In this document: positions 6,904 to 58,026 of the stretch, in pieces
Layout of the letters: each line of letters begins with the position of its first letter
Numbering within the stretch: position 1 is the first letter of the stretch
DNA from: an uncultured Pseudomonadales bacterium
GTDB taxonomy: Bacteria > Patescibacteriota > Microgenomatia > UBA1400 > PJMF01
Assembly: GCA_964583795.1 (NCBI GenBank)
Contig: CAZOWX010000003.1
Span: forward strand, 23,978 to 87,977
Direction: 5' to 3'
DNA length: 64,000 nucleotides
Translations under genes and position numbers: made by a program
Notes under the pieces: generated by a model
Told to the model about the DNA's origin: nothing
Seen by the model: only the letters and a program-made list of their open reading frames with translations
Databases searched by the model: none

Positions 6904-7848
6904 ATGCGACTCATCCTCACTGGCTCCATCGCCATCGATAGAATTCTAAACTTTAGCGGCAAGTACGCTGATGTTATTGCCCCTGATAAACTGCATGTAT
7001 TATCTCTTTCCGTGTTGGTCGATAACTTAGTTGATACTCGTGGGGGAATTGCCGCCAATATTGCATATGGATTAGCGCTACTGGGGGAAAAACCAGTGTT
7101 ATTGGGCAGTGTCGGTCATGATGCGAAAGGGTATATGAATGATTTGGCAGCGCTTGGGATCGATACTTCACATGTTCATTTTTCAAAGAAACCAACCGCC
7201 AGTTTTACGGTGATGACCGATACCGCTGATTGCCAAGTCGGTGGCTTTTATTCTGGCGCGATGAGTGACTCAAGTAGTTTGACGCTCGACGCTTTTGATC
7301 CGGCACGTGATTTTATAGTCATTTCGCCACATGACCCCAAAGCCATGGCGTTGCAGGTCAAGCAAGCGACTGATCGAGGGTTCCATTACTTTTATGACGT
7401 TGGTCAGCAAGTGAGTAATGTGCCTGATGAAGATGTAGTCAATGGAATTGCTAAAGCATCACTACTCATTGTGAATGATTATGAAATGGGAGTAATTGAA
7501 AAGAAAACGAAATTAACTCAAGCCCAGATTGTGAAAAATGTCCCTGTGGTAGTTATTACCTTAGGAGAAAAAGGATCGTTGATTTTTGATCATGGAAAAA
7601 AGCATGAAGTGAGTGCCGTTCCAGTGAAAAAAGTGGTTGACCCAACCGGTGCAGGCGATGCGTTTCGATCAGGATTTTTATTTGGCTATGTTCGTGATTG
7701 GCCAATTGTACAGTGTGCAAAGCTCGGCTCAATTGTGGCTACATTTGCGATTGCACAGCATGGAACACAAGAGCATCACTTTTCCAAAGCTGATATTGAA
7801 AAGATTGCGAAAAAGCAATATAAATTGGTTCTAGGTTCTAGGTTCTAG
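6904..7848 (+). CDS. PfkB-family carbohydrate/nucleoside kinase (adenosine-kinase-like)
   Basis: Ribokinase-like fold with the GG dipeptide and a C-terminal DPTGAGDAF anion-hole motif. The likely start is MRLILTG at 6904 rather than the upstream ORF start at 6832. The last five codons (LGSRF) are encoded by the (GGTTCTA)n array. Confidence 0.75.
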   Translation: MRLILTGSIAIDRILNFSGKYADVIAPDKLHVLSLSVLVDNLVDTRGGIAANIAYGLALLGEKPVLLGSVGHDAKGYMNDLAALGIDTSHVHFSKKPTASFTVMTDTADCQVGGFYSGAMSDSSSLTLDAFDPARDFIVISPHDPKAMALQVKQATDRGFHYFYDVGQQVSNVPDEDVVNGIAKASLLIVNDYEMGVIEKKTKLTQAQIVKNVPVVVITLGEKGSLIFDHGKKHEVSAVPVKKVVDPTGAGDAFRSGFLFGYVRDWPIVQCAKLGSIVATFAIAQHGTQEHHFSKADIEKIAKKQYKLVLGSRF

Positions 7849-7880
7849 GTTCTAGGTTCTAGGTTCTAGGTTCTAGGTTT
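7827..7880 (+). repeat. (GGTTCTA)n heptamer tandem array, about 7.5 units
   Basis: Direct reading. The same array recurs at 47671 and 57984. Confidence 0.8.
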
Positions 7881-8035
7881 GGTTGTTGCTTTGTTATTAA
7901 GAACTACTTACAGACAGATAAAGCAAATCGAAAAGAAGTGGCACTTGTCGCTTGAGGCTTGAAGCATGAAACTTGAAGCCAAAATAAAAGCTTGTAGCTT
8001 TTTTATTAACAAAATTTCTATTAAAAAGGACATTT

Positions 8036-9436
8036 ATGCCAAAGCAAAACTACCAAGTCAAAGATATCAAGCTCGCTGACTGGGGCAGAAAAGAGATTGA
8101 TCTGGCAGAGCAAGAAATGCCAGGACTGATGAGCTTGCGTGAACAGTATGGTAAGAAAAAACCCCTCAAAGGTGCTCGAATTACTGGCTCACTGCACATG
8201 ACGATTCAAACTGCTGTGTTGATAGAGACACTGCAAGCACTCGGAGCACAAGTCCGTTGGGCTTCGTGTAATATTTTTTCCACGCAAGATCACGCTGCCG
8301 CAGCTATTGCTAAAGCTGGGACAACAGTATTTGCATACAAGGGTGAGTCACTCAAGGATTATTGGGAATATATTGACCAAACATTGGATTGGGGAAACGG
8401 CTTGGGACCAAATCTTATCTTAGACGACGGAGGAGATCCCACTCTTTTTGTGCATTTAGGATACAAGGCAGAGGAAGATCCGAAAGTATTGGATAAAAAG
8501 CCAGAGAGTGAAGACGAAGAGTTTTTACTGAAACAGTTAAAAATTTCTTTGAAAAAAGACCCAAAGCGCTTTCATCGCATTATCAAAGACATTCGAGGTG
8601 TGAGTGAAGAAACCACCTCGGGAGTGCATCGTCTATATCATATGCAAGATACCGGTGAGCTGCAATTTCCAGCATTCAACGTCAATGACTCAGTCACCAA
8701 ATCAAAATTTGATAACACCTATGGCTGTCGTCACTCATTGGTTGATGCTATCATGCGAGCAACTGACGTGATGTTGTCTGGGAAAGTAGCAGTCATTGCT
8801 GGCTACGGCGATGTTGGAAAAGGATGTGTGCAGTCACTCAAAGGTCAAGGAGCTCGAATTATTATTACCGAGATTGACCCCATTTGTGCGCTGCAGGCAG
8901 CGATGGAAGGGTATGAAGTGATGCAGATGAGTGATGCATGCAAAATTGGTGATATTTTTGTGACCGCAACAGGTTGTGAACATGTCATTACTCTAGAGCA
9001 CATGAAGCAGATGAAAGACAAGGCCATTGTGTGTAATATCGGTCACTTTGATGCGGAGATTGAAGTTGCCAAATTGCGTAAATTTAAATGGACCAATATC
9101 AAACCGCAAGTTGATTTGGTTCACTTGTCTAAGACAAAAAGTATTATTTTGCTTGCTGAAGGGCGATTAGTGAATCTCGGTTGTGCGATGGGTCACCCGA
9201 GTTTTGTGATGTCCAATAGCTTTACCAATCAAGTGTTGGCTCAAATGGAGCTTTTTGAAAAATTCGAGTCGTACGAGCCAAAGGTGTATCGACTGCCGAA
9301 AAAGTTGGATGAAGAAGTTGCCCGACTACATTTGGGTAAACTGGGAGTCAAACTCGATACATTAACGACTGCACAGGCAAAGTATCTCAATGTTCCAGTG
9401 GATGGACCATTTAAGCCAGAACACTACAGATACTAG
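8036..9436 (+). CDS. ahcY: Adenosylhomocysteinase
   Basis: Full-length 466-aa match to the SAH hydrolase architecture, including the NAD-binding GYGDVGKG motif. Confidence 0.95.
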
Positions 9437-9475
9437 ACTATAGACTTAAGACTATAGTCTATAGACTGGAATTGT

Positions 9476-9955
9476 ATGATCAAAGCCCTTGTCTCCGACG
9501 TCTGGCATGTATTGTTTTTCCCAAAAGACTTTGAAATTCGCGGGCACTCTGATGAGATTGCGCAAAAAATAGTCGGTAAAAATAATCCCAGTTTTTTTGA
9601 TACCTACTTTTTGAATCAAGAGCTACTAGATTATTTTGTAAGTATAAAAAAGCAACACCAACTCAAGTTAGCGCTATTTTCATCAGGAACAATGTATAAA
9701 GAGCCCGAACTGCAACCGCTATTGTCACCAATTTTCGACAAAGTATTTTCCAGTAGCGCCATTCGATACCAGAAAAACGACCCAGCTTCGTATCGTTATC
9801 TGTCTGAACAACTCAACGTTGCTTTGTCAGAACTGCTTTTTGTGGATGACTCACTGCGCAATATCGAAGCTGCACGAGAAGCTGGTGGAGTAGCGATTCA
9901 CTATCACGATAATCAACAAGTGATGAATGCAATTGACTCAGTTTTGAACCGTTGA
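9476..9955 (+). CDS. HAD-superfamily hydrolase-like protein with atypical motif I
   Basis: Motif II LALFSSG, motif III K and motif IV FVDDSLRN are present. Motif I reads SDVWHVL, so the second Asp is absent. Confidence 0.5.
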   Translation: MIKALVSDVWHVLFFPKDFEIRGHSDEIAQKIVGKNNPSFFDTYFLNQELLDYFVSIKKQHQLKLALFSSGTMYKEPELQPLLSPIFDKVFSSSAIRYQKNDPASYRYLSEQLNVALSELLFVDDSLRNIEAAREAGGVAIHYHDNQQVMNAIDSVLNR

Positions 9956-9986
9956 CAGCTTCTTTCGATCTTGAGACGATGGATAC

Positions 9987-56908: not shown

Positions 56909-56955
56909 TGAGCGGTGTATTTCACTGATGAAATTACGGAAAATACATATAACAG

Positions 56956-57033
56956 TCAGATCTTCGATCTCGAAGTCTTCACTTGGCCCGCCCATGGTGG
57001 ACCAGGTTCATTCTTCGGGTCAAGGATGACGAC
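56956..57033 (-). repeat. Hairpin MITE-like repeat, long subfamily, inverted (…GGACCAGGTTCATTCTTCGGGTCAAGGATGACGAC)
   Basis: Similar to 14305-14377 and to the cores of 5243 and 60428. Confidence 0.5.
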
Positions 57034-57034
57034 T

Positions 57035-57916
57035 CTAATTTGAAGGGATATTAATGAAAGGAGTTGATCCATTGCCAACGACCATTGGCAGCTTACCATC
57101 CCATTTTTTGATCGCCTCAAGCTGCAGATACTCATTGGTGAGACTTTGTTTTTGCAAAACTTGAGCTTCAGCCAGCCCTTTGGCTTCAACGACTTTGGCT
57201 TGAGCAGCTTGAGAGGCTTGTTGGACCTCATATTGAGCTTGCTGAACACGCTGCTCAGCGATGACTTTGTCTTCAATGGCTCTGGAGTATTCTGCGGAAA
57301 AATTCACTGAGCGCAAAAGCACCCGGTCAACAGTAATGTTATTGTCACTGAGCAACTCGCGAATTTCCTTGGTCATGGTCTCTTCAGCTTCTTGACGTTT
57401 TTGAGAGTAAATATTGGGAGCACTATAGCGGCTGACAACCATTCTAATCTGGCTTCGGGAAATTGGACGGATGAGCTTGTCGATATAGTTAGTGCCGACT
57501 TTTTGATACAACTCGCCAGCTTTATCAGAATTGATCCGAAATAGCACTGTCGCATCAACTTTGACTGTCTGTCCATCGCTGGTTGGAGCATCAAGTGAGT
57601 CATCCCCAACTACTGCACCTTCATCGGGAACTGCTGTCATGGTGTACTCTTGAAGTCTGGCATCAAACAAAACAACAGTTTGCCAAAATGGAATGACCAC
57701 AGTGATGCCTTCTTTTCTTGATCCAGGAAGCACTCCCTGGCCGCGATCATAAATGACACCAACATACCCAGGAGGGACAAAAGTGACGATTGAGCGGAAT
57801 AAAATAATAGCCAGTACAAAAAAACCAAGAACAGAAAAAAGTTTTTTTGATGGCAGTGCGATTTTGGGTGAGTTGAAGTTTGAAAAGTTTGACATATATA
57901 CGATGCATGATACCAT
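57035..57916 (-). CDS. SPFH/band-7 domain protein (HflC/stomatin-like)
   Basis: N-terminal TM, SPFH core, C-terminal coiled coil (AEQRVQQAQYEVQQASQAAQAKVVEAKGLAEAQVLQ). Confidence 0.85.
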   Translation of the reverse strand: MVSCIVYMSNFSNFNSPKIALPSKKLFSVLGFFVLAIILFRSIVTFVPPGYVGVIYDRGQGVLPGSRKEGITVVIPFWQTVVLFDARLQEYTMTAVPDEGAVVGDDSLDAPTSDGQTVKVDATVLFRINSDKAGELYQKVGTNYIDKLIRPISRSQIRMVVSRYSAPNIYSQKRQEAEETMTKEIRELLSDNNITVDRVLLRSVNFSAEYSRAIEDKVIAEQRVQQAQYEVQQASQAAQAKVVEAKGLAEAQVLQKQSLTNEYLQLEAIKKWDGKLPMVVGNGSTPFINIPSN

Positions 57917-57983
57917 ATTCCCCTCGAGAAATATACAACTGGTACTTGCAGGTAATTTGGAAAAAGGAGAGGATCGTTTAGTT

Positions 57984-58026
57984 AGGTTCTAGGTTCTAGG
58001 TTCTAGGTTCTAGGTTCTAGGTTTTG
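57984..58026 (+). repeat. (GGTTCTA)n heptamer tandem array, about 6 units, upstream of topA
   Basis: Direct reading. Confidence 0.8.

Follow-up and report, generated by a model that had tools for sequence, protein, structure and literature searches.

Three GGTTCTA arrays lie at gene boundaries

We analysed short tandem arrays, above all those of the heptamer GGTTCTA, in a stretch of 64,000 nucleotides (nt) from contig CAZOWX010000003.1 (GenBank assembly GCA_964583795.1). This whole stretch is referred to below as the window, and positions are counted from its first letter. An earlier note, made by reading the letters, had placed GGTTCTA arrays at three gene boundaries, each followed by GTTT(G)GG, and had attributed them to termination, mRNA stability or phase-variable expression, or else to a common insertion mechanism. 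Using Tandem Repeats Finder (TRF) and an exact-repeat script on the window, we recovered all three arrays together with their tails; each is 100% pure and lies on the + strand. The gene names of the earlier note were upheld by NCBIfam matches (PfkB family, AhcY, RecR, YchF, SSB, TopA and a divergent MreB), and RpsR is encoded by a 78-aa open reading frame (ORF) at 47427-47663. The nearest named homologs of the kinase and of TopA belong to the Patescibacteria group, Woesebacteria and Pacebacteria, so that the host is a bacterium of the candidate phyla radiation (CPR; Patescibacteria) of the Microgenomates type.

Array 1, (GGTTCTA)7.6 at 7827..7879, overlaps the 3' end of an adenosine-kinase-like PfkB gene (adoK; 6832-7848). 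It supplies the final 6-7 codons of this gene (LVLGSRF), rather than the five counted earlier, as well as its TAG stop, and extends 31 nt beyond the stop. Among adoK homologs the tail of 5-7 residues that follows a conserved KxYK is variable, and the swap of the native tail for LVLGSRF is plausibly harmless. The adoK gene lies directly 5' of ahcY (6832-9436 for the two); this pairing is kept in all the relatives examined and is consistent with an adenosine salvage pair. Array 2, (TAGGTTC)7.9 at 47669..47723, is located in a convergent spacer just past the rpsR TGA stop, as had been claimed, at a distance of 5 nt (7 nt if counted in the GGTTCTA phase) instead of 8 nt. Array 3, (TAGGTTC)5.9 at 57983..58023, lies upstream of topA, as expected, in the divergent spacer between a Band_7 gene and topA, at a distance of 68 nt from the topA ATG and of 66 nt from the Band_7 start. 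The tails that follow arrays 1, 2 and 3 are GGTTTGG, GGTTTTGG and GGTTTTGG, respectively, and are best read as a decayed terminal unit.

Both GGTTCTA and its reverse complement TAGAACC hold TAG, and three units place stops in all six frames. At array 1, three units suffice to encode the LVLGSRF tail and the stop, and copy number is irrelevant as long as at least three units remain; classical phase variation by frame switching does not apply to this array. A search of the window for the GGTTCTA dimer with up to 3 mismatches gave 19 matches, against 4.0±1.9 in shuffles, with none outside the three arrays; GGTTCTA copies standing alone show no excess (4 observed, ~8 expected). The recurrence of one heptamer at unrelated loci, to which the earlier note had drawn attention, is far beyond chance in the window.

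Tandem arrays are in excess in the spacers and close to gene edges

Placement was assessed on a crude, ORF-based gene map of 70 genes (85% coding, 9.5 kb intergenic), in which stop positions are exact and start positions, taken from longest-ORF calling, are less certain. TRF returned 71 rows for the window. Among these, 42 rows are intergenic against 1.7 expected from Markov-1 simulations for the 9.5 kb, including 16 period-7 rows (0.14 expected) and 7 period-14 rows, and tandem repeats cover 12.2% of the intergenic and 1.2% of the coding sequence. The arrays are also nearer to gene edges than under uniform placement in spacers (mean normalised distance 0.30 against 0.5; Kolmogorov-Smirnov p=6.5e-5), with 6 of the 14 stop-nearest arrays lying within 8 nt of the stop. 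Random placement relative to genes, the outcome that the earlier note had named as speaking against it, is not what we observed: the arrays are intergenic and hug the edges of genes.

The gene-edge siting is real; as a sign of function, however, it is weakened. Such placement is largely forced because the unit has TAG on both strands and a 7-nt unit shifts the reading frame. If the ancestral spacers were as short as 14-82 nt, any array born in one of them necessarily abuts a gene end. Frame-shifting, stop-bearing GGTTCTA units would therefore survive only outside ORFs or over their last few codons.

Array length and array identity differ between close relatives

Logan contigs from DRR783857, with ~99% identity to the window, have their ends or beginnings within arrays 1 and 2, and contig L002 breaks inside array 2. 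As independent assemblies hold the arrays, the arrays are not assembly artefacts. The most direct comparison comes from contig L001 (SRR33126934). Here the 3' flanks of rpsR are identical to those of the window, with a gap of exactly 35 nt, that is, 5 units (2.9 against 7.9 units), and within the rpsF-rpsR block, which is ~99% identical, the two differ by no other indel. Mutation of the array is much faster than that of the bases. The earlier note had suggested comparing unit numbers between strains for slippage; at this site they do differ, by exactly 5 units in an otherwise ~99%-identical block, which supports variation by slippage. Exact look-ups with the Band_7, MreB-like and TopA proteins and with the 100%-identical P0121 gave no contigs, which leaves array 3 and a CTTGCGG array described below without a near-identical-strain comparison.

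L001 is a mosaic with respect to window positions 45409-47883. Across rpsF-ssb-rpsR and the spacers of these genes it shows 98-100% identity to the window, third codon positions included, and the adjoining genes (Fic, DUF) are 75-81% identical, which suggests a recent homologous recombination between diverged CPR lineages. We rejected spacer conservation in this contig as a sign of selection, as the whole rpsF-rpsR block is ~99% identical, third codon positions included.

Three decayed arrays, of ACGAAT, CCTGAAA and TAGACTA, do not differ in length between the window and these relatives. Likewise, the CCTGAAA array is of the same length in L003, and an ssb-side ACGAATNGAA array is of the same length in L001 and L002. 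Length stability of the decayed arrays is what one would expect if pure repeats are required for slippage.

Turnover was observed at the adoK stop codon. In L121 (positions 1380-1470; SRR33126934), a 95%-identical adoK ends in MDLNGL and a stop, followed by a degenerate TGGATTA/TAGATAA (GGATTAT-type) heptamer run, and this run itself encodes the MDLNGL tail and the stop. Two different heptamer arrays supply the adoK tail and stop in two close relatives. The TGGATTA/TAGATAA unit family is also found in the window, at 50335-50373 and 47750-47778.

In relatives at 74-79% protein identity the spacers are short and without arrays. The adoK-ahcY spacer measures 17-48 nt in these relatives and 187 nt in the window; the corresponding lengths are 34 and 132 nt for ssb-rpsR, 82 and 303 nt for rpsR/Wzy, and 14 and 432 nt for the spacer between topA and the next gene. 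Intergenic repeat coverage in contigs L122, L124 and L125 is 0-1.9%. TRF found no period-7 row in the compared spacers of L165 (79% TopA identity), where the orthologous 222-nt Band_7/topA spacer has no array and the CTTGCGG array is also absent from the orthologous spacer. From these comparisons, the arrays are a recent, lineage-specific gain that inflated the spacers.

GGTTCTA arrays recur sporadically in other genomes

In a scan of a genome collection, GGTTCTA arrays were found in more than 117 stretches from many phyla, the carriers including Shewanella, Vibrio, Pseudoalteromonas, Acidobacteriota, Chloroflexota and Saccharibacteria. These arrays reach 22 units, have heterogeneous flanks and occur beside the sibling units GGCTCTA, GGTTCTG and GGTTTTA. 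None of the 77 classifiable arrays lies inside an ORF; 71 of them are in co-directional or convergent spacers and 6 in divergent ones. No strand preference was seen in the co-directional spacers (19 sense against 25 antisense). Period 7 is the commonest repeat period at the GGTTCTA-bearing loci even when the GGTTCTA arrays are left out (48 arrays). In a collection of viral contigs, the GGTTCTA pattern gave 4 matches, compared to 3, 4 and 14 for three composition-matched permuted heptamers at equal pattern length. A universal conserved element was therefore rejected, given permuted heptamers that are as frequent or more so in viral contigs, the heterogeneous flanks and the lack of strand preference. 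GGTTCTA is special within the genome of the window and apparently not across bacteria.

Seemingly orthologous loci with conserved flanks carry GGTTCTA arrays of different lengths in Pseudoalteromonas (10, 5 and 18 units in L021, L057 and L117) and in Shewanella (6, 9+7, 15 and 10 units in L052, L092, L110 and L116). The GGTTCTA microsatellite would thus seem to persist and slip in gammaproteobacteria too.

Slipped-strand mispairing as the probable origin of the arrays

We consider it quite probable that the GGTTCTA arrays are hypermutable heptanucleotide microsatellites of the kind known as long simple sequence repeats (LSSRs), the other short arrays being older and decayed. Such arrays would arise and change in length through slipped-strand mispairing in replication. 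Hairpin-driven expansion was rejected as the route: single-stranded array DNA folds at only ~-2 kcal/mol on either strand. As the array DNA is essentially unstructured, simple slipped-strand mispairing is the likelier mutational route.

According to this slippage model, the lineage would have accumulated arrays in spacers that were originally very short. The arrays would persist only in spacers, where neither the frame shift of a 7-nt unit nor the stops of GGTTCTA in all six frames do harm, and those beginning on a stop codon or immediately ahead of one would be tolerated since they are self-terminating for translation. At adoK, the array would have given a new 7-residue tail and a stop in place of the variable native tail. 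Pure arrays would be young and still slipping, and decayed ones older and stable in length. Selection would act as a filter on composition, G-poor arrays surviving beside starts and G/T-rich arrays beside stops, and the arrays would otherwise be nearly neutral. Any effect on transcripts, through the predicted G·U-rich hairpin and U-run, would be a by-product, perhaps a tunable one. A termination or regulatory function of the arrays is possible but unproven.

Several observations weigh against slippage and near-neutrality as a full account. Array polarity tracks transcription: in gene sense, stop-nearest arrays have G>C and start-nearest arrays C>G (Mann-Whitney p=0.005). Even with the pure arrays left out, YHAGGK motifs number 15 per 2.8 kb after stops against 4 per 3.2 kb before starts, and the two results together point to selection or bias at the RNA level. 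The tetramer CTAG is avoided in the window (observed/expected 0.34 outside the arrays) and yet concentrated in the arrays, with 19 of the 98 CTAG sites falling in the three GGTTCTA arrays. Restriction or repair may be suggested as candidate causes of CTAG avoidance; TTAA is also low in the window (observed/expected 0.54). Of the four long pure arrays in 64 kb, three have the same unit, out of ~1,200 heptamer classes; independent slippage does not account for this, and a genome-specific bias or a spreading process is needed. The three GGTTCTA arrays break off in one and the same phase (…TAGGTT|T), and a 14-nt junction, CTAGGTTTTGGRCG, that is found nowhere else in the window is common to arrays 2 and 3. 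Direct polymorphism in unit number was seen at one locus only, array 2. Finally, a bidirectional intrinsic terminator of textbook form (AAAACCCCTTGCAGAAATGCAGGGGGTTTT), the top match of our terminator scan, lies at 906-935 of L165, within an rpsR/Wzy spacer of 82 nt. The corresponding region of the window (47664-47966) is without this terminator, its 303-nt spacer holding instead the GGTTCTA array, decayed arrays and a palindrome of family D7. This leaves room for a functional substitution of the terminator by the array at the rpsR site.

RNA folding and transcription termination

The first alternative is that the sense-strand arrays are functional RNA, acting as a copy-number-tunable intrinsic terminator or as a 3'-end stabiliser in place of classical terminators. 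We regard this as unlikely. In its favour, the + strand RNAs of arrays 1, 2 and 3 are predicted to fold at -25.3, -26.4 and -21.0 kcal/mol and are followed by U-rich sequence, compared to ~-11 kcal/mol for the opposite strand. Arrays 1 and 2, moreover, begin at or just past the stops of + strand genes, the L165 terminator stands exactly at the site of array 2, and G-rich arrays are enriched in gene sense at gene 3' ends. The fold z-scores, however, are -3.8, -1.7 and -1.2 for the three arrays, weak for two of them. The predicted fold of (GGUUCUA)n consists of 6-bp UCUAGG/UCUAGG blocks split by U·U mismatches, each block having two G·U, two G-C and two A-U pairs, and the tails have 3-4 U.

An intrinsic terminator is a GC-rich stem of at least 5 bp with a loop of 3-8 nt and a U-tract directly behind it (5 or more of 8). 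We scanned for such sites with the criteria of at least 3 G-C pairs in the stem and at least 5 T in 8, and the GGTTCTA arrays were not among the terminator-like sites found, the sequence pattern of intrinsic terminators being absent from them. These sites are near shuffle expectation in two 20-kb segments of the window and modestly above it in the third. The statement of the earlier note that few classical terminators are visible is thus roughly right, and the scarcity itself fits the idea of a replacement. In the 2.9-unit allele of L001 the fold is lost (-11.2 kcal/mol, z +0.4, no more stable than shuffles). An alternative candidate hairpin for ending rpsR transcription is a GC-rich D7 palindrome ~210 nt 3' of rpsR (-23.6 kcal/mol, z -2.4). 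Searches of the window with Rfam at gathering thresholds and with a tRNA scan gave no match, and therefore no known RNA family explains the arrays.

Taken with the placement of array 3 in a divergent spacer upstream of topA rather than 3' of a gene, the absence of a strand preference in other phyla (19 against 25) and the loss or replacement of arrays in close relatives, the original proposal of a role in termination or mRNA stability stands at most in a weak form: the + strand fold is stable, but a canonical pattern is absent.

A related suggestion goes further: the heptamer family, comprising CTAGGTT/GGTTCTA and its decayed YYAGGTK siblings, would have been actively spread to gene 3' ends as a self-terminating element, its six-frame stops and a hairpin and U-run that scale with copy number replacing intrinsic terminators, as is suggested at the rpsR locus. 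We hold this to be distinctly unlikely; if true, it would mean a mutationally tunable control of transcript ends in a streamlined genome.

Other tandem arrays and the leaders of neighbouring genes

Besides the GGTTCTA arrays, the window holds a pure (CTTGCGG)9.6 array and ~30 decayed arrays of 7-, 8- or 10-nt units. The other arrays listed in the earlier note are all present, except that those of TCAGGT type at ~24401, ~55005 and ~60350 are only degenerate YYAGGK runs; the ones at 12340 and 22745 pass TRF. All arrays described in this section are given on the + strand.

The (CTTGCGG)9.6 array (50474..50540) lies 12 nt 5' of the MreB-like ORF, and its unit has no stop codon on either strand. 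The (CCTGAAA)4 array (11700..11727) ends 2 nt before the recR ATG, in a leader that is G-poor and without a Shine-Dalgarno sequence. Decayed C/A-rich arrays of 8-nt units (AACCACAT and CAACTAAC; family D2) occupy 6657..6785, upstream of the kinase gene; among them, TRF reports (AACCACAT)6.4 at 6657-6707. Several arrays follow stops. The (TAGACTA)4.9 array (9434..9467) starts with the TAG stop of ahcY and takes up the spacer of 39 nt that precedes the next gene; a decayed AGGTGTC/TCAGGTK array (12340..12376) begins 4 nt past the recR stop; and a 10-nt array of ACGAATNGAA (43792..43830; family D3) begins 4 nt past the ychF stop, with sibling arrays of the same family at 44477-44512 and at 47301-47335, the latter 6 nt past the ssb stop.

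The (TCAGGTT)4.7 array (22745..22777) lies 27 nt past the stop of an 848-aa ORF, at the 5' end of a low-complexity ORF (22737-23540) that is possibly non-coding. This 267-aa ORF is preceded by a good GGAGG ribosome-binding site, but no NCBIfam family matches it. The tandem arrays in it number four, with TCAGGTT, GTCAGTT, 11-mer and 14-mer units, and it may encode a low-complexity protein built of repeats or else be a non-coding spacer.

G/T-rich and C/A-rich 8-nt arrays also occur as two inverted pairs. At 23695..23778, between two + strand genes, (GGTTGTTG)4 is followed by (AACAACAC)4, and these arrays are predicted to form a strong hairpin (-35.2 kcal/mol, z -5.0). At 61458..61536, between convergent genes, (GTTGTTAA)n is followed by (CAACAACA)n, with a predicted long hairpin (-22.7 kcal/mol, z -1.3). 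Such pairs may be repeat-built structures resembling insulators or terminators.

Arrays that abut start codons in the window include those of CCTGAAA and ACTATTAACTATCA. G-poor, C/A-rich repeat leaders with no recognisable Shine-Dalgarno sequence abut the start codons of many genes, recR and topA among them (starts at 3386, 11730, 23792, 58092 and 62585 on the + strand, and at 40471 and 62433 on the - strand); other genes of the window carry AAGG or GGAGG before the start. The repeat-containing spacers of Beggiatoaceae include comparable leaders without a ribosome-binding site (PMC4679880).

These leaders bear on a further alternative, namely that the arrays are multivalent DNA or RNA binding sites for a heptamer-recognising regulator or a nucleoid protein. 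Such sites would define a small regulon or allow phase-variable tuning of neighbours (topA, mreB, recR). We consider this proposal very unlikely. One heptamer at three unrelated loci, with no excess of singletons, would fit it, as would arrays that abut the starts of recR, the MreB-like gene and topA in leaders lacking a Shine-Dalgarno sequence, and there is a parallel in the TAACTGA repeats of Beggiatoaceae, for which a binding role of the regulator or nucleoid type has been proposed (PMC4679880). However, no protein emerged as a candidate binder, relatives do not conserve the arrays, and the short allele is tolerated. The genes concerned are functionally unrelated housekeeping genes, and the positions of the arrays relative to them differ (over the stop at a 3' end, in a 3' spacer and in a divergent 5' spacer).

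Array flanks and dispersed palindromic elements

The left and right 120-nt flanks of the three GGTTCTA arrays were compared by local alignment, and the scores are within or barely above those of shuffles, with only low-complexity motifs of ~11 nt in common. No inverted terminal repeats or target-site duplications were seen at the three arrays. A mobile element of the miniature inverted-repeat transposable element (MITE) or repetitive extragenic palindromic (REP) type shared by the arrays was rejected, as the flanks are non-homologous. A metagenome scan with the array and its 3' junction returned 13 unrelated contigs, GGTTTTG being a common variant unit in unrelated lineages; a lineage-specific junction was rejected on the same ground.

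The spacers of the window are filled by several short dispersed palindromic families resembling REP or MITE elements (for example GAATGTGCCAGYCCAAGGCTGGTCCGCCTTGGGCGGAGAGTGTG, GGTCCCGCACTGCGGGAT and CGTCATCCCGAA…TTCGGGATCTAAAGTCAGAG). The right junction of array 2 is formed by TTGGGCGGAGAGTGT (47724..47738, +), the 3' half of the dispersed palindromic element D5, which is intact at 5135-5182, 13441-13488 and 50372-419. The D7 palindrome GTCCCGCAGTGCGGGAC lies at 47872..47903, between rpsR and a convergent Wzy-like gene; its copies are located at 576-607, 12655-686, 29308-339, 29530-561 and 47872-903. Families D6, D10, D12, D14, D16 and D18 are represented at ~1965-2165, 12407-12431, 13525-572, 24564-631, 29399-740 and 55211-533. 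A 19-nt string, CAGAGCGTCGGGTTTCAGG, occurs at 1871-1895 and 6370-6395, in each case just past the stop of a + strand gene (630-1868 and 6071-6358, respectively), the two genes being unrelated.

Delivery of the arrays by a common insertion or templated synthesis, whether by a small mobile element, as a transposon footprint or through heptamer addition by an enzyme like a reverse transcriptase or a primase, is extremely improbable: the shared terminal phase (a TAGGTTT unit), the CTAGGTTTTGGRCG junction of arrays 2 and 3, the D5 half-element beside array 2 and the richness of the spacers in REP/MITE-like elements would agree with it, but the flanks have no significant homology, terminal repeats and target-site duplications were not seen, GGTTTTG is a widespread variant unit, no transposase or reverse transcriptase was noted beside any array, and the length difference in L001 is a clean multiple of 7 within identical flanks, as slippage predicts. 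The common insertion mechanism of the earlier note thus found no support.

Comparison with known repeat systems

Heptanucleotide repeats are the most abundant LSSR class in many bacteria, and slippage is their proposed origin (Mrázek 2007, as cited in PMC4679880 and PMC4692102). As far as these citing papers convey the account of Mrázek, Guo and Shah (2007), the arrays of the window share with LSSRs perfect head-to-tail 7-nt units, lengths beyond chance, an intergenic location, the dominance of period 7, a sporadic phylogenetic spread and length variation consistent with slippage. The long pure arrays have 5.9-9.6 perfect copies, are in excess over chance and are concentrated in spacers, with polymorphism in unit number at one locus. 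Unlike the LSSRs described so far in these sources, they occur in a small-genome CPR bacterium and visibly expand spacers that are otherwise tiny. We found no description of such arrays in Patescibacteria in the literature searched, and a literature search on the GGTTCTA tandem sequence itself gave no match.

Direct repeats of TAACTGA, of unknown function, have been described in marine Beggiatoaceae and in some Cyanobacteria and Bacteroidetes (MacGregor 2015, PMC4679880). Similarly to GGTTCTA, one heptamer is found at many unrelated intergenic sites and in distant phyla, stop codons in the unit limit overlap with ORFs, arrays lie a few nucleotides from gene boundaries, and leaders lack canonical ribosome-binding sites. 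The TAACTGA sets, however, have 2-6 copies and lie mostly just upstream of starts, whereas GGTTCTA arrays have 6-8 copies and two of the three are at 3' ends; their placements (at a stop, 5 nt past a stop and 68 nt before a start) do not follow the TAACTGA pattern. TAACTGA RNA is predicted to be unstructured, in contrast to GGUUCUA RNA, for which a G·U hairpin is possible. BOGUAY has few related heptamers, whereas the window holds many sibling and decayed heptamer arrays. No TAACTGA array is present among the 71 TRF rows of the window.

Three tandemly repetitive heptanucleotides occur in Calothrix, and GGGAATC or GGGGA(T/C)T repeats in Xanthomonas and Nostoc (PMC4692102). The short tandemly repeated repetitive (STRR) sequences of cyanobacteria and the Xanthomonas and Nostoc repeats resemble the arrays of the window in being genome-specific intergenic heptamers that vary extensively in length and sequence at the same sites between close relatives. 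The Xanthomonas and Nostoc repeats, however, contain G-runs, absent from GGTTCTA, that can fold into G-quadruplexes, and the units and hosts differ. The STRR units of heterocystous cyanobacteria, reportedly described by Mazel and co-workers in 1990, are said to be CCCCAGT, TTGGTCA and CAACAGT; none of the three is among the TRF rows of the window.

Phase-variable contingency loci carry simple sequence repeats in the promoters, 5' untranslated regions or ORFs of Haemophilus, Neisseria and Moraxella. They have in common with the window a slippage-driven change of units beside genes, and some arrays of the window are between a likely promoter and a start (topA, the MreB-like gene). However, contingency loci act on surface or restriction-modification genes, whereas the neighbours of the arrays are housekeeping genes and array 1 makes no frame switch. 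Arrays 1 and 2 share with intrinsic terminators a predicted hairpin followed by a U-rich stretch just past a stop, but differ from them in a G·U-rich stem with regular U·U mismatches, 2 G-C pairs per 6-bp block and a U-tract of 3-4. CRISPR arrays consist of ~24-48 nt repeats split by unique spacers of similar length; they were ruled out, as the 7-nt units abut directly without spacers. We concluded that the arrays belong to a known kind, the LSSRs, and are closest in behaviour to the TAACTGA repeats of Beggiatoaceae, while standing outside the sequence-defined STRR and TAACTGA families.

Implications

What is new here is a CPR host whose spacers are inflated by heptamer arrays and REP-like palindromes, together with local evidence of rapid length change and of array turnover at the stop codon of a gene. 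On the slippage reading, the interest of the arrays is mainly descriptive. In practical terms, such arrays break short-read contigs during assembly, and a repeat can supply the 3' end and the stop codon of a gene, which matters for annotation; the arrays would also make good strain-typing markers. They add a data point on why 7-nt units are favoured among long bacterial microsatellites and on the preference of a genome for one unit. If they did work as tunable terminators or binding sites, the arrays would offer an evolvable and simple means of regulation in organisms that can as yet be neither grown nor manipulated. For CPR genome evolution, it is relevant that heptamer microsatellites and small palindromic repeats can enlarge the spacers of a reduced-genome Patescibacteria lineage, here from 14-82 nt to 130-430 nt.

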